This document shows, one piece after another, positions 7,328-58,036 of a DNA stretch of 64,000 nucleotides. The translations under genes were made by a program, and so were the position numbers. This DNA comes from an uncultured Alphaproteobacteria bacterium (GTDB lineage Bacteria > Pseudomonadota > Alphaproteobacteria > CAAHEQ01 > UBA3637), in contig CALXXX010000019.1 in the NCBI GenBank assembly GCA_944392795.1, forward strand, positions 15,916-79,915, in the 5' to 3' direction. Each line of letters starts with the position of its first letter. Within the stretch, counting starts at the first letter, position 1. Under the pieces are notes generated by a model. The model saw only the letters and a program-made list of their open reading frames with translations. It had not been told where the DNA came from and did no database searches.

Positions 7328-8149
7328 ATGTATCCAGGTATTCCGTTTCCAAATTTTGATCCTATTTTATTTCAAATAGGATTTTTTGCTATTCGGTGGT
7401 ATTCACTGGCTTATATTGTTGGTCTTTTGTTGGCATGGTTATTGGTTCGACGGATGAGCCGTTTTACAAATTCGACTTTTACGGTTTTAAAAGTTGATGA
7501 TTTTTTAGTATGGGCAACGATAGGAATCGTGGCCGGCGGACGTTTAGGGTATGTTTTGTTTTATCAATTGCCTTATTTTTGTGAATATCCTTTGCAAATT
7601 TTTGCTTTATGGAAAGGAGGTATGTCATTCCACGGTGGTTTAGTGGGAATGATTATTGCGACATTATGGTTTTGTTGGAAAAAAGACATCAATGTGTTTA
7701 TGGTTGGAGATATGTTAGCTGCGGTGGCGCCGATAGGATTGTTTTTAGGACGATTAGCTAACTTTATTAACGGAGAGTTATGGGGACGAGTGACAACCTC
7801 TGTTCCTTGGGCTATGATATTTCCGGGAGCGGGTGATTTACCCAGACATCCGTCTCAACTATACGAAGCCTTAACAGAAGGGTTATTATTGTTTGTTATT
7901 TTAAATATTGTTTGGTGGAAGTCTGAAAAATATCGAAATCGTTATGGATTTACGTGTGGATTATTCTTTTTATTATATGGGCTGTTCCGGTTCGGCATAG
8001 AATTCTTCCGTGAACCAGATCCATTCTTAGGTTATTTTGCTGATTATTTGACAATGGGGCAGTTGTTATGTCTTCCTATGATTTTATTTGGTCTGTGGTG
8101 TATTGCTTTTTCATCACCAAAATTTCGCTTTAAAAAGCTGATGGAGTAA
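7328..8149 (+). CDS. lgt: prolipoprotein diacylglyceryl transferase
   Basis: Lgt signature (..I..GFFAIRWYSLAYI.G....W.....GGRLGYV.FY......P..IF..W.GGMSFHGG..G). Confidence 0.9.
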   Translation: MYPGIPFPNFDPILFQIGFFAIRWYSLAYIVGLLLAWLLVRRMSRFTNSTFTVLKVDDFLVWATIGIVAGGRLGYVLFYQLPYFCEYPLQIFALWKGGMSFHGGLVGMIIATLWFCWKKDINVFMVGDMLAAVAPIGLFLGRLANFINGELWGRVTTSVPWAMIFPGAGDLPRHPSQLYEALTEGLLLFVILNIVWWKSEKYRNRYGFTCGLFFLLYGLFRFGIEFFREPDPFLGYFADYLTMGQLLCLPMILFGLWCIAFSSPKFRFKKLME

Positions 8150-8151
8150 AA

Positions 8152-8790
8152 ATGAAAAAGAAAAGTTTATGGGAAGGTTTTGTTCGTTTATTAAACATGC
8201 GTTTAATTGTTCCCTTAAAACGTAGCCCTCATCCGCCGGAGTATACGGCTCGAGGCGTTCTTGTTGGAATGATGTGGGCAATGACGCCATTAGTCGGGAT
8301 ACAAATGACGACAGTTCTTTTAACTTGGATTGCGGCTAAGAAGATCTTTAAATGGCATTTTTCTCTTCCCATTGCAATTGCTTACACTTGGGTGACAAAT
8401 GTTTTTACCATGGGACCCGTCTATTATGTCTTTTATGTAACGGGCAAGGTGATGATGGGGGATTGGGGAAATATTAGCGCTTTTGCTAGCTTCTCTCACA
8501 TTATGCACGAGGCTTTTTCAGATGTTGGCTCTTTTTGGGAAATTACAAAAGCATTATTGATATTTGGGAAAGTTTTGTTACAAGAATGGGGATTAGCAAT
8601 GTCTTTGGGCTGCATTCCCTGGTCTATTTTCTCGGGATGGATTTCATATCGATTGACAATGAAGTGGCTTTTAAAAAGACAAGCCAAAAAAAACAAATCA
8701 GCAGAAAAACGTAAATACTGGCGTGAAAAATTACATTCGGTTGTACATCCGATTTCGGTTCATCAGGAAAAAAAGAATGAAAAAAAGTAA
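8152..8790 (+). CDS. DUF2062 domain membrane protein
   Basis: Pattern typical of DUF2062 (..P..RSPH..A.G.LVGMMWAMTPLVG.QM....). 212 aa. Immediately downstream of lgt. Confidence 0.6.
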   Translation: MKKKSLWEGFVRLLNMRLIVPLKRSPHPPEYTARGVLVGMMWAMTPLVGIQMTTVLLTWIAAKKIFKWHFSLPIAIAYTWVTNVFTMGPVYYVFYVTGKVMMGDWGNISAFASFSHIMHEAFSDVGSFWEITKALLIFGKVLLQEWGLAMSLGCIPWSIFSGWISYRLTMKWLLKRQAKKNKSAEKRKYWREKLHSVVHPISVHQEKKNEKK

Positions 8791-9409
8791 ACTTCTGACA
8801 CAAATTGATTATCTTGGTCATGCCTTTTATGATAAAGACGATTCAAGTAAATTAAAAAATCCTATTCTTTTAAAACAAATACACTCTTTTGAAGTTATTC
8901 GTGTCAAAAAAAACACAGATACTATGCAATCTGCCGATGCGCTGGTGACATGTGTTCCAGGATTAAAATTAACCCTTAGAACAGCAGATTGTGCCCCCGT
9001 TTTGTTGGCGGATAAAAAGCGAGGCGTTATTGGAGCAGCACATGCTGGTTGGAAAGGTGCTTTGAGTGGTGTTTTGGAAACAACGATTTTAGAAATGGTG
9101 CGTTTGGGCGCTTGGCCAAGTAATATTGTAGCCGCTATCGGTCCTTGTATTCATGTCGATAGTTATCCCGTTGATACAGATATGAAACGACTTTTTACAG
9201 AAAATGTTCAACCATTTTTTGTTTCGTATCCGGATGGAACGACACATTTTAATTTACCGGATTATGTTGCTTATCGGTTGCGCCGTGCTGGTGTTCAAAG
9301 TGTTGATTTAATTGATATCGATACTTATACAGACAAGCACTATAATAGTTATCGTCGTTCTCCGTCTGATCCTGCTCGTCAATTCAGTGCTATTTGGATA
9401 AAAGGTTAG
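8777..9409 (+). CDS. pgeF: peptidoglycan editing factor PgeF / YfiH-family laccase-domain protein (DUF152)
   Basis: ..TADCAPVLL.D..RGVIGAAHAGWKG...GV.E.T...M...G conserved YfiH core. Start moved to the internal ATG 8777 to remove a low-complexity N-extension. Confidence 0.8.
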   Translation: MKKSKLLTQIDYLGHAFYDKDDSSKLKNPILLKQIHSFEVIRVKKNTDTMQSADALVTCVPGLKLTLRTADCAPVLLADKKRGVIGAAHAGWKGALSGVLETTILEMVRLGAWPSNIVAAIGPCIHVDSYPVDTDMKRLFTENVQPFFVSYPDGTTHFNLPDYVAYRLRRAGVQSVDLIDIDTYTDKHYNSYRRSPSDPARQFSAIWIKG

Positions 9410-9569
9410 ATATCTTTTTTCTAAAAAGATAGGAAGCCTTATGCTTCCTATCTTATCGAACAATATTTACTTGTTTTTGTTTTATTTTTTTTGAATTTTA
9501 AAAAAATAGCTAAAAATATTGACAAAATAATATTTTTGAGGTAAACTCTTTCTTAAAAAAAAGGAAGGG

Positions 9570-10646
9570 ATGAAGATGGAATTATCAAGTATTGAAAATG
9601 AACTTTTTATGGCGATTGATCGAGGAAATGTTTCAGAGGTTGAGAAATATTTAAAGGCTGGAGCAGATTTAACCGTTGTTAATAATCAGAGAGATAATGT
9701 TTTACATACGTATTTTAAGTCACTTTTAACAGCCCGTAAACCGTTTGAAGTGAAACAAAGTTATTATGAAGCTAACGGAGGGACATCTCGAGAAGTAAGT
9801 GTGCTGAATACGAATTGGCAACGGGAATTAAATCGTCGTCGGTTAATTTTTGATGTGTTGCTTGAGCACGTTCCAGTTGAGTTATTAAATGCTCGAGATA
9901 AGGAAGGTTTTACGCCTCTTTTACGCGCTGTTGAGATGTCTTTTCCTTATGAAGCCAAACGGCTTTACTTTAAAGGTGCTGATTTATCTTTGCGGACATT
10001 AGATTATCATTTTGGTGTTTTGGAAATGGCGACTTATCAAAACGATCTTCCAATGTTGGACTTTTTTTATCAGGAGGTTCAAAAAGCAAAGGCTCAGCAA
10101 AGTTCTTTGTCAGAAGAAACGAAAAATATTCCGCAGTCGTCTTTTTACAGACATCGTAATTTAATGATGGTTGCTTGTATGAAAGGGAATATTGAGGCAT
10201 TAAAATATCTTTATCAGGCAGAGCCAGAGCGTGTAAATGATCAAGATTCCTATGGGGATACAGCAGCACAGGTATGCCTTAGAACAGATGCATACGGTTA
10301 TTGGGTTCGATTGCATGCAGCTTCGTTGGAACCAAAGGTGAGCCGAGGTCAGCTTTTATGCTTGGATTTTTTATTAAGTAAAGGCATTAGAGTAGATCTT
10401 AAAAATTTAGAGGGTCGAACGCTTTTAGACTGCGTTCGTTTCCAACAACTGCCCTGTCAAAGTCGTGTTGAAGAATTGTATAAAGCTCAAACAGGTTATT
10501 TACCAAAAGATGTGAGAGATATTCAGAAAATTCGTCAACAGCAAATAAATCGAGTGGCTGCTTTAAAACAAAATGAGATGGCTATTCAACGTCGTAAAGC
10601 GTATTTAGCTGCTTTGCGGAAAAGAAATCTAGAATATGGTGAATAA
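9570..10646 (+). CDS. ankyrin-repeat-containing protein
   Basis: Several ANK-like modules (LKAGADLTVVNNQRDNVLH; EGFTPLLRAVE; YFKGADLSL; LLSKGIRVDLKNLEGRTLLD). No signal peptide. Eukaryote-like repeat fold. Confidence 0.6.
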   Translation: MKMELSSIENELFMAIDRGNVSEVEKYLKAGADLTVVNNQRDNVLHTYFKSLLTARKPFEVKQSYYEANGGTSREVSVLNTNWQRELNRRRLIFDVLLEHVPVELLNARDKEGFTPLLRAVEMSFPYEAKRLYFKGADLSLRTLDYHFGVLEMATYQNDLPMLDFFYQEVQKAKAQQSSLSEETKNIPQSSFYRHRNLMMVACMKGNIEALKYLYQAEPERVNDQDSYGDTAAQVCLRTDAYGYWVRLHAASLEPKVSRGQLLCLDFLLSKGIRVDLKNLEGRTLLDCVRFQQLPCQSRVEELYKAQTGYLPKDVRDIQKIRQQQINRVAALKQNEMAIQRRKAYLAALRKRNLEYGE

Positions 10647-10680
10647 GAAACCAGCTCAAGGTTGTCCTTGAGCTGGTTCT
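10647..10680. other. perfect 13-bp inverted repeat (AACCAGCTCAAGG-ttgt-CCTTGAGCTGGTT) between convergent genes
   Basis: Seen directly. No flanking T-tract on either strand, so an intrinsic-terminator role is uncertain. Confidence 0.5.
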
Positions 10681-10713
10681 TACAGAGGAATGAGAATACG
10701 ATAAAATTAGATG

Positions 10714-11313
10714 TTAAAAGTAGTATTGCATACCGATTTTAACATCGCTGTATCTGACGTTTTCTTCTATTTTTGAGCCAGTTGCAACGGATTCAACCTT
10801 TGCTTTACCCAAATCAGAGAAGCGATACCCCAGATCTAATGTGACACAAGGTGTTAATGCATATTCTACACCAGCGCCAACATTCCAGGCAAAATTACTT
10901 TTGCCCTTCCCTTTATATGCGCCTTTGAAACTGTCAGTCTTGTTATAAGAATATCCGACGCCTCCGGTTGCATATACAGAGAACTTGTCATAGACAGGAT
11001 AGCTGGCATAAACATTTGCCATAGCTCCCATTGTCCACATATCAGCTTTGCCGACTTCTGTGTCAGCGTCTTTAAACTTTTGCTTGCCCCATGGACGCCA
11101 TTGAGCTGTTAAATCCGCTTTAAAGTATTCATTCATGCGGAAGCCGACACCAGCATCAAAAACAGCAGCTTCTTCAGTGTTTTTCATACCAATGGCGTAA
11201 CCACCATCAACCCGAACATACATATCATCAAAATATGTTGTTTGTGCGTTGGCTGATGAGGCCATCGTTATTGCTGCGACTGCAGCGAAAGTTGATAAAA
11301 GATACTTCTTCAT
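10714..11313 (-). CDS. 8-strand-type outer membrane beta-barrel protein (Omp25/Omp31/hemin-binding-protein-like porin family)
   Basis: Signal peptide ending ANA-Q. Alternating amphipathic beta-strands. C-terminal aromatic ..MQYYF. Size about 200 aa. Confidence 0.7.
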   Translation of the reverse strand: MKKYLLSTFAAVAAITMASSANAQTTYFDDMYVRVDGGYAIGMKNTEEAAVFDAGVGFRMNEYFKADLTAQWRPWGKQKFKDADTEVGKADMWTMGAMANVYASYPVYDKFSVYATGGVGYSYNKTDSFKGAYKGKGKSNFAWNVGAGVEYALTPCVTLDLGYRFSDLGKAKVESVATGSKIEENVRYSDVKIGMQYYF

Positions 11314-15007: not shown

Positions 15008-16336
15008 TCAAATAGTTTCTCCGGATAAGCTACTGGCAGTGGCAGCAGAAATATGTAATGTGACAATATCTCCCAGCCTGTCTTCCGGCAAAGAGACATG
15101 TACATTCTGAAGATAAGGGCTATAACCGTTGAGTTGCCCTTTTTGTTTGCCGCGTTCTGTAAGCAGAACAGGCAAATTTTTGCCGACAAAAGTTTGATTA
15201 TAGCTTTTTTGTAATTCCAAAAGTTTTGCTTGTAAAATTGAGAGGCGTTCTGTTTTAATAGCCTCTGGAACTTGATTTTTCATGAGACTAGCAGGAGTTC
15301 CGGGTCTTGGAGAATATTTAAAAGAATAACTTTGAGCATAGCGAACTTTATCTACCACAGCCAATGTTTGTTCAAAATCTGAATCGGTTTCGCCCGGGAA
15401 ACCAACGATAAAATCGGAAGAAATCGCGATATCCGGTCTGGCCTTACGTAATTTTTCAACGACTTCGAGATATTGCGCGACACAATAGCGACGGTTCATC
15501 TCTTTGAGGACTTTATCACTTCCGGCTTGAATAGGTAGGTGAATATAAGGCATTAACTTTGGAATATCTCGATGAGCCGCAATCATTTCATCCGTAATAT
15601 CGACTGGATAACTGGTTGTATAACGAATGCGTAAAAGGCCATCCATCTCAGCCAAACGTTCAATGAGTTGAGCTAAATGCCAAGTCTTACCATCAAGGCC
15701 TTCGCCATGCCAGCAGTCCACATTTTGTCCAAGCAGCATAATTTCTTTAGCTCCCGTATCAACTAATGCTCGTGCTTCGTTTAAGACAGCTTCAGCAGAG
15801 CGAGAGTACTCGCACCCTCGCGTATAGGGAACGACACAGTAAGAGCAAAAATTATCACATCCTTCTTGAATAGCTAAGAACGCCGTGCATCCATGAGAAG
15901 TTGGTTGAGCTAAAGCGTCAAATTTTTCAATACTGGTAAATTCGGCGATAGTTTTACGACCATTTTTACGATTGAATTGTGTGATAAGCTCTGGCAATTT
16001 ATGATATGACTGAGGTCCAACGGCAATATCGACACTATGTGCTTTTTTTAAAAAAGCGTCCCCCAAAGCTTGTACGACACATCCGGCGACTGCAATCAAT
16101 GTTTCTTGACCTTTCTTTTTGCGTTCTTGTTTGATTTCCTGAAAGCGTCCAAGGCAAGAAAATACTTTATCAGCTGCCTTTTCTCGAATATAACATGTGT
16201 TGACCATCAACAAATCTGCTTCTTCAGGTTTTTGAGTTTCTTCATAGCCTAGGATGGCTAACGCATCCAGTATTCGTGTACTGTCGTAGACATTCATTTG
16301 ACAGCCCATGGTATTCATAAAAACTTTTTTAGTCAT
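15008..16336 (-). CDS. miaB: tRNA-2-methylthio-N6-dimethylallyladenosine synthase
   Basis: MTTase N-terminal Cys triad. Radical-SAM motif CDNFCSYCVVPYTRG. C-terminal TRAM domain. Confidence 0.92.
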   Translation of the reverse strand: MTKKVFMNTMGCQMNVYDSTRILDALAILGYEETQKPEEADLLMVNTCYIREKAADKVFSCLGRFQEIKQERKKKGQETLIAVAGCVVQALGDAFLKKAHSVDIAVGPQSYHKLPELITQFNRKNGRKTIAEFTSIEKFDALAQPTSHGCTAFLAIQEGCDNFCSYCVVPYTRGCEYSRSAEAVLNEARALVDTGAKEIMLLGQNVDCWHGEGLDGKTWHLAQLIERLAEMDGLLRIRYTTSYPVDITDEMIAAHRDIPKLMPYIHLPIQAGSDKVLKEMNRRYCVAQYLEVVEKLRKARPDIAISSDFIVGFPGETDSDFEQTLAVVDKVRYAQSYSFKYSPRPGTPASLMKNQVPEAIKTERLSILQAKLLELQKSYNQTFVGKNLPVLLTERGKQKGQLNGYSPYLQNVHVSLPEDRLGDIVTLHISAATASSLSGETI

Positions 16337-17078
16337 TCGTTTGTCCTTCGCCTGTTATGCGTTGTTTAAGTTTGCTGACTTCCAGCAATCGACGAGCGGG
16401 ATCCGGTTTTCGTCCACGAGGATAAAGTGTATCTGAAAAAGAAGCAAATTCTTTTTCGGAAAGGACATTTTTAGCCGTTTGTAGCAGTTTATCTTCTTTC
16501 CAGGCAGAGGCTTGTCGTATGGCTTGTTCTCGGGCAGACTTACCATATCGACTTTCTAATGTTGGTAAAAGGCGAACGGCTTCTGGGTCTTGTGTTGCGC
16601 CGGCGGGATAGAACCATTTATTATCGGCTTTTTCAGCGGCTAACAACATCCAAGCATAAGCAGACATTTCTCTTTTCTGAGGAGGTAAAACAGTATCAGT
16701 ATTTTGCGCTTTTAAATCTTGAATTTTATCTTCATATTCTTTTAAAGCGTTTTGTCCTGGCGCTCCCATGCGTTCTACTTCCATCATTAATTGAGCTAAT
16801 GCTCGTTGAGCAGAGGCTAAGCCATTTTCAGCGGCAAAACGATAGTAAAAGAGAGCCAGCATAATATTCTGTTGTGTTCCTGTCCCCGTTTGATACATTT
16901 TCCCCAAAGCGTATTGAGCATGTGGATCATTTTGTTCTTTTGCACAGTTTTCGTAAACTTGGCGAGCTTGTTTATGATGTCCGCGCTTTAAATAAGCATC
17001 TCCGAATAAACAAGCAGCATTTGCCGTTAAAGACAATATTGTAAAAGTTGAAAGGAATAACAGAAATCTTCTTTTCAT
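16329..17078 (-). CDS. Sel1/TPR-like repeat protein with signal peptide
   Basis: Sec signal. Sel1-like motifs (AQYALGKMYQTGTGTQQN...A..YYRFAAENG.ASAQRAL). Confidence 0.6.
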   Translation of the reverse strand: MKRRFLLFLSTFTILSLTANAACLFGDAYLKRGHHKQARQVYENCAKEQNDPHAQYALGKMYQTGTGTQQNIMLALFYYRFAAENGLASAQRALAQLMMEVERMGAPGQNALKEYEDKIQDLKAQNTDTVLPPQKREMSAYAWMLLAAEKADNKWFYPAGATQDPEAVRLLPTLESRYGKSAREQAIRQASAWKEDKLLQTAKNVLSEKEFASFSDTLYPRGRKPDPARRLLEVSKLKQRITGEGQTND

Positions 17079-17878
17079 GATGACTCAGCCTTTTTAAAGG
17101 TAATATCAATTCGACGTGTTTGTAAACTCATGGGTTTTATTTTGGTTTCGAAAGGCAAGACTTCTCCGGGGGAAACGATTTCTTTTACAGGAGCAAGAGT
17201 TTGTTCTCCTGTTTTTTCCCCGGTGCTGTTTGTTAGGATTAGATGGATAAAGGGCATTTTTCTATCTGTATCAGAGGTGTTAACGACGGCTCCTTTAACC
17301 AATAAAGTTGGTACATCATCTTCTTTCATGACGTCGAAAAAAGTGTCTTTAAAATCAAGTCCTGTCCCAACAGGTTCTGTCTGTAATCCGAAACGTTGAT
17401 AAAAAGGCTGAGTAAAGGGAAAACGTCGTGCAATATAAAATCGAGCGGCGATGATCAAAGACAAAAGCATGAGCAATATAAGAAAAAAAATGATCAATTT
17501 TTGACAATAATGATGTTTGGGTGTTGGTTCTTCTATTGGCATAAAAGCATCCGGCATTTCTGATAATGGTTCGGATAATGGATTTTCTGTCAGAAAGGAG
17601 GGTATTTTTTGAGTGAAACAAGGTTTTTGTTCTTCCTCGAGAACGGCGGCAACATCTTTTCGTTCATTTTCGTCTAATTGATCGGGCGTTACAGAAGATG
17701 TGGCAGGTTTTAAATTTTCTGCCAGAGCCGTTTGTGTCATATCTGGTTCTTCATCGGATTGTGTTGTTTGCTCAAAAGTATAATTACAGGCTTTGCAGTG
17801 AAAAACCTGTTTCCCCGGCTTGATTTTATCAGCTGGGACATCATAAATACGATGGCAATTTGGACACATTGTGAACAT
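17075..17878 (-). CDS. zinc-ribbon (MJ0042-type) / DUF3426 membrane protein
   Basis: N-terminal CPNCH..(x)..CKACN zinc ribbon. Central acidic/Pro-rich linker. One TM helix and a C-terminal DUF3426-like domain. Conserved position upstream of ftsE. Confidence 0.6.
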   Translation of the reverse strand: MFTMCPNCHRIYDVPADKIKPGKQVFHCKACNYTFEQTTQSDEEPDMTQTALAENLKPATSSVTPDQLDENERKDVAAVLEEEQKPCFTQKIPSFLTENPLSEPLSEMPDAFMPIEEPTPKHHYCQKLIIFFLILLMLLSLIIAARFYIARRFPFTQPFYQRFGLQTEPVGTGLDFKDTFFDVMKEDDVPTLLVKGAVVNTSDTDRKMPFIHLILTNSTGEKTGEQTLAPVKEIVSPGEVLPFETKIKPMSLQTRRIDITFKKAESS

Positions 17879-21888: not shown

Positions 21889-21968
21889 ATAATTTTACAT
21901 AAAAAAATTGACTTGTGTTTTTTTTATGGTTACAAAAAAATAAGGTTGTTTTTTGTCAGGAGGTATGT

Positions 21969-22445
21969 ATGAAAAATACGATTTCTTCACCAATTTTAGA
22001 TAATACATTTATTTTTGACCTGTTCCAAAAGAAAATGAGGCGTGTATGGAAACAAATTCGTACAACTGTAAATTTACAATCAACAGATTGCCAAGGGTAT
22101 TCGTTACTTCACATGTCTGTTTTTTTAGGGCTGCGACCTTTGAGTGAATTTTTGATCCGTCAAGGAGCAGATGTTAATGCACGTAGTAAGACAAAATTTA
22201 CACCTCTTCATTTGGCCGCGCATCAGGCAAATGAAGAAATGATTAAAATGTTATTGGCCTATGGTGCACGAACCGATTTGAAAGATTATCTTCATCGGAC
22301 ACCTTTAGCGTACATGAAAACACTTGACTTCTCGGATAAAAGAAACGAAGCACGCGCTTGCATGGAATTATTAAAAAGAACGGTTCGCATTCAATCACAT
22401 GAAACAGCTCATTTAAGGAATAGGTTGTTAACGCATACACGTTAA
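21969..22445 (+). CDS. ankyrin-repeat protein
   Basis: Canonical ANK repeats (GYSLLHMSVFLGLRPLSEFLIRQGADVNARSKTKFTPLHLAAHQANEEMIKMLLAYGARTDLKD..RTPL). Start at ATG 21969, preceded by GGAGG. Confidence 0.7.
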   Translation: MKNTISSPILDNTFIFDLFQKKMRRVWKQIRTTVNLQSTDCQGYSLLHMSVFLGLRPLSEFLIRQGADVNARSKTKFTPLHLAAHQANEEMIKMLLAYGARTDLKDYLHRTPLAYMKTLDFSDKRNEARACMELLKRTVRIQSHETAHLRNRLLTHTR

Positions 22446-24361: not shown

Positions 24362-24951
24362 TGACAAAACAGCTGATTTTTGCTTCTCGGAACGCGGGTA
24401 AGATTAAAGAAATTCGTTCTTTGTTGAAGCCGTTAGGTGTTGAAGTTCTATCGGCAATTGAAGCCGACTTACCAGAGGTTGAAGAAACAGGAGAAACTTT
24501 TGCAGAAAATGCCTCATTAAAAGCATCTTCTGCCGCTTTATCAGCAGGCCTTCCGGCATTAGCGGATGATTCTGGATTATGTATTCATGCTTTAAAAAAT
24601 GCGCCTGGTGTTCAAACAGCTAGATATGCACAGAAATGTGGAGGCTATGATTCAGCTTTTGCGGATATTTTAAAAAAGTTGGAGGGTAAGTCTGATTGGA
24701 CAGCTCATTTTTCTTGTGCTATTGCCTTAGCGTTTCCGAATGGAACGATAAAGACTTATGAAGGAAAATGTGAAGGGCGTATTGTTCAACCCAAAGGGAT
24801 AGACGGTTTTGGATTCGATCCGATTTTTGAGCCGAAAGGATATACGCAAACTTTTGCTGAATTACCGGAAGAGGTTAAAAACCAAATTTCTCATCGTGGT
24901 CGTGCGATGAGAGCCTTTTTGGCTGATTTTGAAAATCTTATTGAAATGTGA
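24361..24951 (+). CDS. rdgB: non-canonical purine NTP pyrophosphatase (dITP/XTP diphosphatase)
   Basis: Ham1 family motifs (FASRNAGKIKE; DDSGLC; GFGFDPIFEP). Conserved rph-rdgB adjacency. Confidence 0.9.
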   Translation: MTKQLIFASRNAGKIKEIRSLLKPLGVEVLSAIEADLPEVEETGETFAENASLKASSAALSAGLPALADDSGLCIHALKNAPGVQTARYAQKCGGYDSAFADILKKLEGKSDWTAHFSCAIALAFPNGTIKTYEGKCEGRIVQPKGIDGFGFDPIFEPKGYTQTFAELPEEVKNQISHRGRAMRAFLADFENLIEM

Positions 24952-25405
24952 TGGTTAAGGTTTTGTTTTCCCCGCTGGACGTGCAATTACCACTTCCAGT
25001 TCCACAAGTGACGCTTGTTGCATAAGGCCAATCACGCGCAGTCAAAAGGGTGCACTCATCGGCTGGTATTTCAGACGCACTGACAGTTAAAGAGTCTGGG
25101 GTGCTGCTGAGACAATAAGAACCATCAAAAGGATTTGCGTTCGGAACATTATCAGTACATCCTTCTGGGAAAATATCATTTTCGCAAAGTTGTTTTAAGT
25201 TGATGGCGGGATAAGAGCGTCTCCAAGAATAAAGTTTAGCGGTTTCGTCACCTATATAAGAAATGGAATCATGTAACTGACTGCTTTTAAGTTTCAAACG
25301 AGCTTGTCCGAAGCCGGCTAAAGCGCCAATAGAAATAATACCGATAATCATTAAAACGGCCAGCATTTCAATCATGCTTCGTCCATATTGTGTCGCTTGT
25401 GTCAT
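24938..25405 (-). CDS. pilin-like protein with prepilin-type N-terminal cleavage/methylation-like domain (paralog 1)
   Basis: Short leader MTQATQYG, then RSMIEMLAVLMIIGIISIGALAGF (Glu at +5, hydrophobic helix), which is the class-III signal architecture. Strong RBS AAAAGGAGAAAAAAT before ATG 25405. Cys-containing C-terminal globular part. Confidence 0.6.
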   Translation of the reverse strand: MTQATQYGRSMIEMLAVLMIIGIISIGALAGFGQARLKLKSSQLHDSISYIGDETAKLYSWRRSYPAINLKQLCENDIFPEGCTDNVPNANPFDGSYCLSSTPDSLTVSASEIPADECTLLTARDWPYATSVTCGTGSGNCTSSGENKTLTITFQ

Positions 25406-29252: not shown

Positions 29253-29666
29253 TTATTCTGTGTAAGTGAAAGATACTGTAACGTCTTCTTGATTTCCGCA
29301 GATATCTGTACTTCCAGTAAACAGAGCGTCGTTAGCATGGATTGTATGTGTTTTTTCAAGCTTGGGTAAGACGGCTCGACAAACCTTCCATGGAACTTGG
29401 GTTGTCATGGTGAAGCGATAAGGTGTTTCTATTGTGATATTCAGGATGTCTACATCGGATAGCTTATAAGAGCTGCCGGCAGAGAGGCCTCGCCAATCAT
29501 CGCGCAGGACCATTTCTTTTGTCGCATAGCTGACTTCTGAGGCAATATGAATAGCTTGTCCACTGGTTCTTGCTTGAACTAATCCCCATAGGCCGCCGAT
29601 TGACAAAGCTCCCATGATGGCTAGGACAGCTAACATTTCCAGCATTGAACGTCCGAGTTGTGTCAT
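29253..29666 (-). CDS. pilin-like protein with prepilin-type N-terminal domain (paralog 2)
   Basis: Leader MTQLG, then RSMLEMLAVLAIMGALSIGGLWG. The RBS context (AAAGGAGAAAAAATGAC) is nearly identical to that of paralog 1. Confidence 0.6.
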   Translation of the reverse strand: MTQLGRSMLEMLAVLAIMGALSIGGLWGLVQARTSGQAIHIASEVSYATKEMVLRDDWRGLSAGSSYKLSDVDILNITIETPYRFTMTTQVPWKVCRAVLPKLEKTHTIHANDALFTGSTDICGNQEDVTVSFTYTE

Positions 29667-39840: not shown

Positions 39841-39871
39841 GAAGCCTATTTTTAAAATAGGCTTCTTTTTT
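39841..39871 (+). terminator. intrinsic terminator after flavodoxin gene
   Basis: GAAGCCTAT-ttttaaa-ATAGGCTTC + T6. Confidence 0.65.
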
Positions 39872-39993
39872 AATGAGAGAAAGGAATATACAGAAATTTA
39901 TTTTTTTATATTCAGAAATACTAATTTTTTACATTGACACATTTAATTTAATATAGATATATAACTTAACCAATCGAGTGAGTGTGTCATAAA

Positions 39994-41166
39994 ATGTCGT
40001 TAATAAGGAAATTATTTTTCAAGTCTTGTTGTGGACGAAGTATGATAGAAATGCTTGGCATGTTGGCGATTGTGTCACTGCTAAGTTTAGGGTCATTTTG
40101 GGGGATAAGACAGCTTCGTATTCATGAAAAGGCAAACGAGCTTGCCTTTACTTGTACTCAAATCAGTCAAGACGTGTTGACTTCTGAGAAGATACAAAAT
40201 CTTCCGGAAGGGAGCTTGATTGAAGAAGTTGATTCAATACAAGTTTTCTCTGTCTCCTCAGATGCTTTTGTATTATCTCTGCCGCCGGTATCTGAGCCAA
40301 TTTGTCGTGTTTTATTGCCCTTATTTCAAAATGATTATCGTGTCTGGATAGAAGATACATTATGGAATGGAAATGAAGCTGCTTGTGTCGGGGAAGCTAT
40401 TCAAATTCAATTAGAAAGAAGTATCTCCGGTATATGGGATGAGCTGGATTCTTGTGAGGCGGGAAAAGTTCCTTTATTCTCTGGAGGGTGCGGATGTCCT
40501 GCAGATAAACCATTGTTAGTTGAGGGAGAATGTTCTGCGTCTTGTCCTCCTGAGCAAAAAGCGGGAAGTAATGGATTATGTTGTGCGGAACTGAATGAAG
40601 AGGGGAAGTGTTGTCAAACATTTTATGATTATGATAAGGCCACGGTCTGTTGCGAAAAAGGGGAAACAGCCTATACAAATGCTTATAACAAAGCTATGTG
40701 TTGTCCGGCCTCTTCAAAATTATCTGAGGTTGGCGTTTCTTGTTGGGGTGAGCAAATAAAAGCGTGTTGTCCCGTTGGTTTTTCTCCGCTGATGAAAAAC
40801 TGTAATCAACCTAAATGTTGTGTAGATGAACATTTCTATGATCTTTCAAAAAATGTTGTCTACTCGATCTGTTGTGCAGATGGATATATTGGGTACTCTC
40901 CTGAGGCTAATAGCTATTGTTGTCCTGTTCATTTAAATTATCATTTAGATATTGTTATCTCAAAAGATGAAGGATGCTGGTATGTTGATTTGAAAACTTG
41001 TTGTCCTGAGGGATATAGTGGCTATCTTTCTGAAACAGATATGAATAATCGATGTTCCCGAGAAAAAAGATGTTGTCCCGTTCAAAATTTGGTAGATGGT
41101 CATTGTTCTGGCGGCGATATTGAGACCTATAGAGGTGCTCCAAACGGTCAAATGATAGATGGTTGA
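39994..41166 (+). CDS. pilin-like protein (paralog 3) fused to a large paired-cysteine (CC-dyad) C-terminal domain
   Basis: Leader ..KSCCG, then RSMIEMLGMLAIVSLLSLGSFWG. A C-terminal region of about 250 aa carries at least 12 CC dyads (CCAELNEEGKCC..VCCEKGE..MCCPASS..ACCPVGF..KCCVDEH..ICCADGY..YCCPVH..TCCPEGY..RCCPVQN). The ORF track starts at GTG 39982; the first ATG is at 39994. Confidence 0.6.
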   Translation: MSLIRKLFFKSCCGRSMIEMLGMLAIVSLLSLGSFWGIRQLRIHEKANELAFTCTQISQDVLTSEKIQNLPEGSLIEEVDSIQVFSVSSDAFVLSLPPVSEPICRVLLPLFQNDYRVWIEDTLWNGNEAACVGEAIQIQLERSISGIWDELDSCEAGKVPLFSGGCGCPADKPLLVEGECSASCPPEQKAGSNGLCCAELNEEGKCCQTFYDYDKATVCCEKGETAYTNAYNKAMCCPASSKLSEVGVSCWGEQIKACCPVGFSPLMKNCNQPKCCVDEHFYDLSKNVVYSICCADGYIGYSPEANSYCCPVHLNYHLDIVISKDEGCWYVDLKTCCPEGYSGYLSETDMNNRCSREKRCCPVQNLVDGHCSGGDIETYRGAPNGQMIDG

Positions 41167-57132: not shown

Positions 57133-57409
57133 TTAAAAACATATCTTTCCTTGTATCTCGAAATTAACAAAGTTTCAAGTTTTTTTTATAAAAAAGCTCT
57201 TAAAGAGACTTGTACTTCTGTTCAAGATACAGCAAGATAATACTAATTTGAAGATTATTGAAAAAGTTTCTCCCAAAATGACTATATAGAGGATAAAAAA
57301 GCAGCTGTTTTTTTATTTAAAAAAATATTTACAAATCGACTATTATTTTGTTATTCTAACTTAAAGAATATACAAAAGGAGTTTAATATGTCTATTTTAG
57401 CTAAAGTTA

Positions 57410-57421
57410 CCCCCCCCCCCC
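57410..57421 (+). repeat. homopolymeric poly-C tract (12 C), candidate slipped-strand phase-variation switch
   Basis: Twelve consecutive C in an AT-rich genome. The tract sits 22 nt downstream of an ATG (57388) that has a good RBS (AAAAGGAGTTTAAT), and separates that start by +1 from the downstream CC-dyad ORF. Confidence 0.9.
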
Positions 57422-57502
57422 ATATTAATTAATTGTTTTAATTATATAATCCTCTTTTCTATTCTTGCTTTACCTGCTTCTGCTAAAGTTGTTCAAAGAA
57501 AA

Positions 57503-58036
57503 ATGTATATGGTTTGTGAAGAGCATGAAAAAGCCTATTGGAATGGTTCAAAGGGTGTGTGTTGCAATGGTAATGTTTATCAAAAAGCTGAAAATGAGTA
57601 TGCTTGTTGTCCTGTCGGGCAATTTGTCAAAAATATCAGCGGTTCTTCTTACCAAATTTGCTGCGCGGAAGATTATCTGAGTGGATATATTCTTGATGAT
57701 GTCGTTATGTGTTGTTCGAATAATCCGAATGCTGCAGGTCAGGAAAAGCAATGCTGTACGAACGGTGGAGAATGGATTTTAACACAACAAACTGGTTCCT
57801 GTAACTGTAACAATGGAAATGCACCTGCCGAAATTAATATACAAGAAACAATTTATTCTTGTGGCGGACAACAATATTGTGATGTCAATAGCCCTGGTTC
57901 ACAATGGCTGTTATCTGCTGAACTCTGTACATACGGTCCATTATATTTTAAAAGATATGATTGTATACAAGAAGAACAATTAACGAGCTGTGATAATTTT
58001 TCCAGCTATGACTGTTGTGGATATTTTTATCAATAA
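57503..58036 (+). CDS. secreted CC-dyad cysteine-rich protein, paralog of the C-terminal domain of the 39994..41166 pilin-like gene (probably translated from ATG 57388 only when the poly-C tract is 11 or 14 nt)
   Basis: The ORF contains VCCNG..ACCPVGQ..ICCAEDY..MCCSNNP..QCCTNGG..CNC. repeats. The in-frame upstream extension back to the poly-C encodes a signal-peptide-like ILINCFNYIILFSILALPASA. Confidence 0.55.
   Translation: MYMVCEEHEKAYWNGSKGVCCNGNVYQKAENEYACCPVGQFVKNISGSSYQICCAEDYLSGYILDDVVMCCSNNPNAAGQEKQCCTNGGEWILTQQTGSCNCNNGNAPAEINIQETIYSCGGQQYCDVNSPGSQWLLSAELCTYGPLYFKRYDCIQEEQLTSCDNFSSYDCCGYFYQ

Follow-up and report, generated by a model that had tools for sequence, protein, structure and literature searches.

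Two genes rich in paired cysteines (CC dyads) were characterized in a 64,000-nucleotide stretch (64 kb; hereafter, the window) of contig CALXXX010000019.1, from an uncultured Alphaproteobacteria bacterium of the human gut: p1 (39994-41166, + strand), which encodes a protein of 390 residues, and p2 (57503-58036, + strand), an open reading frame (ORF) of 177 residues. Our results suggest, with a probability that we estimate at about 0.6, that p1 is a modular, type IVb-like pilin carrying a galaxin-like ladder of CC dyads, and that p2 belongs to a separate, phase-variable family of Sec-exported proteins. Both ORFs, as read in the sequence and in the list of ORFs, are present as described in an initial annotation of the same DNA, which had proposed a novel paired-cysteine domain shared by two paralogs, one fused to a pilin-type N-terminus and the other placed behind a poly-C-gated signal peptide.

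In the proposed model, p1 would be a modular type IV (IVb-like) pilin with a short leader ending in Gly. Residues 15-149 would make up a small pilin head, its long alpha-1 helix being formed by the mature N-terminus, RSMIEML..., and a module of about 240 residues would be grafted onto this head. As in galaxin-like proteins, the ten CC dyads of this module would give rise to a series of short beta-hairpins in which consecutive hairpins are joined by a disulfide, and the ladder would be capped by C184, the proposed upstream cap, and by C371. The protein would be inserted in the inner membrane, its cysteines oxidised in the periplasm, and the whole most likely exposed on a type IV filament or at its tip, with the grafted module facing the host or a ligand. 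The p2 family would comprise switchable exported proteins with a conserved di-cysteine ladder at the start and a hypervariable, Cys-rich end. By comparison with known modular pilins, p1 most likely serves to present a disulfide-stiffened module on a type IV filament, and p2 is probably a galaxin-ladder-like surface protein with variable expression. The data show the CC statistics, the pilin fold, the membership of the families, the conservation and parity of Cys, and the differences in tract length; from the likenesses to known systems we infer the connectivity of the ladder, the display on a filament, and a role as adhesin or in immune evasion.

The pilin-like module of p1 and its relatives

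Class III signal peptides are defined by a hydrophilic leader whose last residue is Gly and by a stretch of some 21 residues after it, most of them hydrophobic, with a Glu at position +5 (PMC4471445). The N-terminus of p1, MSLIRKLFFKSCCG followed by RSMIEMLGMLAIVSLLSLGSF, agrees with this definition, with G14, E19 (the Glu at +5) and a hydrophobic stretch at residues 15-35; both G14 and E19 are invariant in an alignment of 25 family sequences. An AlphaFold2 model of residues 1-149, built with these 25 sequences, reached a predicted local distance difference test (pLDDT) score of 89.4 and displays a long alpha-1 helix packed on an antiparallel beta-sheet head. The best Foldseek matches of this model were pilins, and the complete pilin head, helix plus remainder, is predicted to fold like CofA and TcpA. 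In addition, one of the short paralogs in the window (24938-25405) came close to the Pfam family PilS_N (E 0.001; 19.6 bits, cut-off 22). Based on the confidence of the model, the Foldseek matches and this near-threshold similarity, a pilin fold for p1 residues 15-149 is well supported, and the pilin-type N-terminus pointed out in the initial annotation is, by the model and its matches, part of a genuine type IV pilin module.

Three pilin-like genes are thus found in 64 kb, p1 and two short paralogs scattered among housekeeping genes (Table 1). The modular construction of p1 is evident from the paralog of 137 residues, a complete protein that corresponds to p1 residues 1-145, residues 150-390 of p1 being extra. 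When 1.84 billion representative proteins were searched exhaustively with a profile, 83 matches of 53-903 residues were obtained, nearly all starting with G↓RSM(I/V)EML (the arrow marks the predicted cleavage site), and a metagenome scan for this motif yielded at least 477 confirmed relatives. Many long members of the family bear Cys-rich C-terminal extensions, with several CC dyads in about one-tenth and 18 dyads in P0027 (here and below, P and L followed by a number designate related proteins and loci, respectively). A search of the literature found nothing on the N-terminal motif, nor on pili in RF32 Alphaproteobacteria. As a separate observation, a single metagenome contig (L018) carries three pilin-like genes of about 310 residues with near-identical N-terminal halves within 9 kb (8621-9550, 9983-10942 and 16519-17448), interleaved with housekeeping genes.

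Pilins onto which functional modules have been grafted are well known (PMC8179133), a modular pilin being one in which the pilin module precedes an additional module outside the pilin fold (Raynaud et al. 2021), and p1 shares the combination of a pilin module and an extra module with PilB and PilC of Streptococcus sanguinis and CofB of enterotoxigenic Escherichia coli. It differs from them in that its extra module is a di-cysteine ladder without a domain-database signature, in that its N-terminus does not reach the pilin signature IPR012902/TIGR02532, and in the Arg at +1.

The di-cysteine arrays and their likeness to galaxins

The p1 protein contains 35 Cys and 11 CC dyads, one of them in the leader; the other ten start at residues 196, 206, 219, 236, 258, 275, 293, 309, 336 and 360, with gaps of 8-25 residues. 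When residues 151-390 were shuffled, a mean of 3.2 CC was obtained, and none of 10,000 shuffles reached 10. For p2, with 20 Cys and six CC, the shuffled mean was 1.9, and 12 of 10,000 shuffles reached 6. Among window ORFs of at least 100 residues other than p1 and p2, none has more than one CC. Every motif quoted in the initial annotation was found and the arrays are real; their extent had been overstated, since the Cys-rich part of p1 occupies residues 154-371 (about 220 residues instead of 250), with the dyad array at 196-361, and the dyads of p2 do not take up most of the ORF, five lying in residues 20-85 and the sixth at 171.

The ten-dyad array occurs in only three protein clusters at 90% identity, namely that of the window itself, P0001 (94% identity) and P0002 (59%). 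P0002 retains each of the 30 Cys that p1 has in residues 151-375, compared with 52% of the other residues. The number of mature Cys is even in 57 of 69 proteins of the pilin family and in 29 of 36 of the p2 family, where four of the seven odd counts correspond to fragments; furthermore, in another metagenome-assembled genome (L017), a DsbA-like thioredoxin-fold gene (PF01323; 1616-2539) lies directly upstream of a p2-family gene. Judging from this conservation, the even counts and the DsbA-like gene, structural disulfides are the clear reading of the Cys in the p1 module and the p2 family. Disulfides between adjacent cysteines are rare rather than impossible.

Neither p1 nor p2 gave a significant family in Pfam, NCBIfam or PDB sequence searches, and PDB sequence searches with the p1 CC region, the CC cassette of a relative, the p2 profile and the C-terminus of P0027 returned chance matches alone; lectin-like C-terminal ends, considered for P0015, P0019 and P0027, were consequently dropped on the result for P0027. 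The sole non-pilin Pfam model recurring among 39 CC-rich relatives was Galaxin_repeat (PF24748), matched by three proteins, all of them p2 relatives and all below the 28-bit cut-off (best E 0.0015; P0137, E 0.028, 14.8 bits; P0114, E 0.08, 13.3 bits). p1 and p2 themselves did not match Galaxin_repeat.

Galaxins and calcarins contain 10-23 di-cysteines spaced 10-15 residues apart, with a single Cys at a like distance before and after the array, and their AlphaFold models consist of hairpins chained by disulfides, the first Cys of a dyad being bonded to the second Cys of the preceding hairpin; taken together with galaxin-like proteins, they form an exported group with 5-23 CC dyads (PMC12419799; PMC2726143). 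The array of p2 follows this pattern exactly (C5-x14-CC-x13-CC-x16-CC-x15-CC-x12-CC-x14-C100), and that of p1 follows it too, its loops being longer (C184-x11-[ten dyads]-x9-C371, with a further four loop Cys). Because dyad spacing and single-Cys caps match the published galaxin ladder, both arrays are best read, by analogy, as ladders of disulfides between repeats. The initial annotation had suggested such a ladder or metal sites, and the full Cys conservation at 59% identity, the even counts and the galaxin-fitting spacing all agree with the ladder. The annotation's description of the domain as novel does not hold, given that the CC architecture is already known from galaxins, calcarins and galaxin-like proteins and exists as PF24748; the novelty here is a putative di-cysteine ladder in bacteria and on a pilin. 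Members of PTHR34490, which together with PF24748 represents the galaxin group, have been reported from animals, other eukaryotes and archaea. The arrays of p1 and p2 resemble this group in having evenly spaced CC dyads and single-Cys caps within an exported protein (export being predicted here), and differ from it in being bacterial, in their attachment to a pilin or to a phase-variable signal peptide, in having no link to biomineralisation, and in that the Pfam matches of their relatives are all below the gathering score.

Another known domain had been named in the initial annotation as a possible refutation, the granulin repeat, to which no match was found; the galaxin-type repeat is the one approached, below its threshold. 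Five pilin-family proteins (P0012, P0016, P0037, P0064 and P0022) share a four-dyad cassette, CC-x9-CC-x7 to x12-CC-x5 or x6-CC(P/S), which ends in CC(P/S)xDKP and is echoed by the p1 linker motif GCGCPADKPLL, similar to the CCPxDKP motifs of family relatives. The spacing of this cassette recalls that of granulins. In granulin/epithelin (PF00396), CC dyads lie in stacked beta-hairpins with a disulfide ladder (PMC7463432); the framework has twelve Cys, C-C-CC-CC-CC-CC-C-C, at spacings of 5-8 residues, and those of p1 and p2 are much wider (8-25). Granulin membership was rejected, as neither a Pfam Granulin match nor a PDB sequence match was obtained. Separately, a 386-residue protein with a weak Sel1 match in L014 carries a CC-dyad stretch, ACCQEGTHSILIPSRGDSVCCP (7794-7889), so CC dyads may occur in further protein contexts of the lineage.

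Whether the two arrays share an ancestor is a distinct matter. The description of p1 and p2 as paralogs could not be upheld in the form given: pairwise BLASTP gave E 0.001, hhalign a probability of 2.7%, p1 is missed by the hidden Markov model (HMM) built on the p2 family, and BLASTP between the p2 and pilin families gave no match at E < 0.01. The z of the Smith-Waterman score is 6.2 against full shuffles and falls to 2.85 against shuffles that keep the Cys in place, of which 13 in 1000 equal the observed score. The hhalign, HMM, family-level BLASTP and fixed-Cys results favour an independent origin of the CC pattern, or a compositional style common to two unrelated families, and galaxin-like proteins are likewise thought to have possibly multiple origins (PMC12419799). 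On the other side stand the pairwise BLASTP value, the z against full shuffles and three collinear units that match between p1 and p2 (CE..E.AY.N....CC, ACCPVG and ICCA(D/E)(G/D)Y..GY), these units being the only motif match that links the two. By a pattern drawn up after inspection of the sequences, the first unit (as C.E...AY.(N/D)...CC) was detected in every member of the p2 family and in the p1 orthologs; no further occurrence was met among 146 proteins, nor when the window and 17 loci were translated in six frames. We consider separate origins a substantial minority possibility, and a common origin of p1 and p2 likely, on suggestive evidence, but unproven.

A putatively switchable signal peptide in the p2 family

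Upstream of p2, an AGGAG motif precedes an ATG at 57388 and a tract of 12 C at 57410-57421. With 11 or 14 C, the p2 frame would read MSILAKVTPPP-ILINCFNYIILFSILALPASA↓KVVQRK-MYMVCEEHE..., a standard Sec signal peptide. A profile search identified a p2 family of at least 35 protein clusters, predicted to be Sec-exported, dispersed and multi-copy, whose members have in common the signal peptide and about 25 residues at the mature N-terminus, followed by hypervariable Cys-rich ends; about half of the gene calls include the signal peptide and about half begin at an internal Met. One contig carries two copies separated by about 100 kb, and a further copy is located 5 kb from the p1 ortholog of L003.

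The tract length differs among strains and copies. It is OFF in the window (12 C), in L001 and L002 (10 C) and in L016 and L017 (14 C), and ON in L015 (13 C) and in L014, where an interrupted tract, C7TC6, is in frame; the flanks of the tract are identical within lineages despite the differing C counts. For p1, the ortholog of a sister species (L003/L004) has a G13 tract in the spacer between the -35 and -10 elements (TTGACA-tt-G13-taaag-TATACT; L003, 5912-5945), unlike the p1 promoter of the window, where no homopolymer tract is present. As a hint of switching, two independent contigs (L005 and L006) stop at the G tract of the p1 ortholog or inside it. Hence, homopolymers of at least 8 in the 5' coding region or core promoter, varying in length among strains or copies, which define contingency genes, are found here, and the poly-C tract in the signal-peptide codons of the p2 family has the classic features of a contingency locus, by whose slippage expression would be turned on and off. 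This bears out the initial annotation, which had placed p2 behind a poly-C-gated Sec signal peptide.

In Neisseria pilC, a poly-G tract is located in signal-peptide codons. Other homopolymer contingency loci include the promoter C tracts of Bordetella pertussis fim2, fim3 and fimX and the promoter poly-C of Neisseria meningitidis opc, and an interrupted tract, C9TC8, has a precedent in Bordetella parapertussis (PMC1891110; PMC3960869), which the C7TC6 of L014 resembles. As in these loci, tract lengths vary between strains, with poly-C in signal-peptide codons of the p2 family and poly-G in the promoter spacer of the L003 p1 ortholog; unlike Bordetella fim and opc, p1 in the window has a tract-free promoter, and the ON and OFF states here are read from assembled sequences. 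With regard to the variable ends, P0127 resembles P0119 with an internal deletion, joined to a signal peptide of the P0126 type, and P0125 contains the unit CGGD.YC...G..W four times, versus once in p2; by this hybrid and this repeated unit, the p2 family appears mosaic.

Competing readings, significance and genomic context

Several results weigh against a filament-borne p1 with a disulfide ladder. The full-length AlphaFold2 model, built with three sequences, has a pLDDT of 46 overall and 25-63 across the CC array, and is unusable for this module, so that the ladder is deduced from its pattern. Mature p1 has 33 Cys, an odd number; therefore, one Cys would be unpaired or paired between chains. 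The omega ratio (nonsynonymous to synonymous substitution rates) is 0.1 in the pilin module and 0.25-0.40 in the CC array, and the latter value gives no sign of positive selection.

The remaining unfavourable points also support the alternative that the pilin-like N-terminus is an inner-membrane anchor or export signal only, and that these are membrane-tethered periplasmic or envelope proteins forming no filaments. A Pfam search of the window found no filament ATPase, platform, secretin or prepilin peptidase, and searches by motif in the surroundings of 95 related genes, about 600 kb in all, revealed no filament ATPase or peptidase, the positive control (L009, Verrucomicrobiota) being detected; the genes are scattered among housekeeping genes. 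p1 and almost all of its family carry an Arg at +1, an unusual residue there for pilins, in which this position is hydrophobic (Phe, Met, Leu and similar) and N-methylated. Pilin signatures also stay below threshold, p1 having no match to TIGR02532 or PF07963 (N_methyl) at E up to 1, and its paralogs and relatives scoring 13-16 bits against TIGR02532 (cut-off 16.3) and 13-17 against PF07963 (cut-off 21.2). Against a simple anchor, pilin genes are often unlinked to their machinery, and the entire pilin head is conserved with its predicted CofA- and TcpA-like fold. Moreover, the invariant Glu5 is needed for pilin assembly rather than for processing (PMC4471445). We judge the anchor-only alternative unlikely.

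Metal binding by the CC dyads (metallothionein-like or cluster-binding) has very little probability: the high Cys density and the ferredoxin and flavodoxin genes in the neighbourhood, in a gut bacterium resembling an anaerobe, speak for it, and the export signals of p1 and p2, the even Cys counts, the arrays rich in aromatic and charged residues with the long regular spacings typical of galaxin ladders, and the DsbA-like gene of the lineage speak against it; the metallothionein-like version was rejected on export signals and Cys parity. Likewise, that p2 is a decaying pseudogene whose poly-C frameshift is mere damage, as the out-of-frame tracts of the window and L001/L002 would allow, is highly improbable, since the downstream frame of 177 codons is intact and 97% conserved between strains, the OFF lengths 10 and 12 flank the ON length 11, and ON as well as OFF forms bearing the same signal peptide occur among orthologs and paralogs.

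Going beyond the modular-pilin reading, p1 and its relatives might constitute an unrecognised class of type IV filament subunits in gut Alphaproteobacteria (Arg at +1, G↓RSMxEML, swappable ladder modules), whose arrays would be the first galaxin-like ones in bacteria. They would form a surface-variation and adhesion system with phase-variable secreted ladder partners that have units in common with the pilin modules, and these partners would perhaps dock on the pilus tip in the manner of CofJ on CofB; we regard this extension as doubtful. If the proposed reading is true, many pilin genes are unannotated in uncultured human-gut Alphaproteobacteria, given three in 64 kb and hundreds in metagenomes, and, as current signatures miss G↓RSMxEML proteins, such genes are undercounted in modular-pilin surveys. 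Bacteria would then also possess the galaxin-type di-cysteine hairpin ladder, an architecture so far discussed for animal matrix proteins, in the role of an extendable, disulfide-stiffened scaffold for display. The homopolymer switches mark these genes as candidate determinants of interaction with the host or with phages, in a lineage without a cultured representative.

The features of the window are listed in Table 1. The neighbours of p1 and p2 are housekeeping genes with conserved synteny, and the hairpin after the flavodoxin gene indicates that p1 forms its own transcription unit. A locus 94% identical to the window is present in CASDQF010000043.1, from an uncultured Alphaproteobacteria bacterium, and a gut contig in ENA carries an identical p1. 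Between the window and L010, synonymous divergence (dS) is 0 in the p1 pilin module and 0.13 in the CC array, an inequality that suggests recombination between modules. The comparison with L007 gave the reverse pattern of p1 module divergence.

Table 1. Coordinates of the p1 and p2 genes and associated features in the window
Feature	Position	Strand	Remarks
Short pilin-like paralog, 155 residues, G↓RSMIEML	24938..25405	-	
Short pilin-like paralog, 137 residues, MTQLG↓RSMLEML	29253..29666	-	Aligns with p1 residues 1-145
Terminator-like hairpin after flavodoxin gene	39841..39865	+	
TTGACA, -35-like hexamer upstream of p1	39943..39948	+	Read in the sequence
p1 coding sequence, 390 residues, bimodular pilin-like protein	39994..41166	+	
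p1 leader peptide MSLIRKLFFKSCCG, residues 1-14, conserved Gly at end	39994..40035	+	Predicted cleavage after G14, by the class III signal-peptide rule (PMC4471445)
p1 predicted type IV pilin module, residues 15-149	40036..40440	+	RSMIEML..., Glu5, alpha-1 helix 17-63, beta-sheet, conserved C104/C131
p1 Cys-rich linker, residues 150-195	40441..40578	+	Single Cys 154, 166, 168, 180, 184
p1 ten-dyad CC array, residues 196-361	40579..41076	+	Four single Cys in long loops (250, 270, 328, 354)
p1 C-terminal tail and stop codon	41077..41166	+	C371, proposed downstream cap, 9 residues past the last dyad
Start codon of p2, preceded by AGGAG, with the Sec signal-peptide codons	57388..57484	+	Out of frame with the ORF in the window
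p2 poly-C tract, 12 C	57410..57421	+	OFF; 11 or 14 C would join signal peptide to ORF
p2 ORF as listed, 177 residues	57503..58036	+	Predicted mature start, K at position 57485
p2 putative di-cysteine ladder region, C5 to C100	57515..57802	+	Pattern compared with PMC12419799

Eukaryote-like repeat proteins are typical of host-associated bacteria. Three such genes were observed elsewhere in the window: an ankyrin protein (9570-10646, + strand) and a Sel1 protein (16329-17078, - strand), both by Pfam, and a protein that is ankyrin-like by eye only (21915-22445, + strand).

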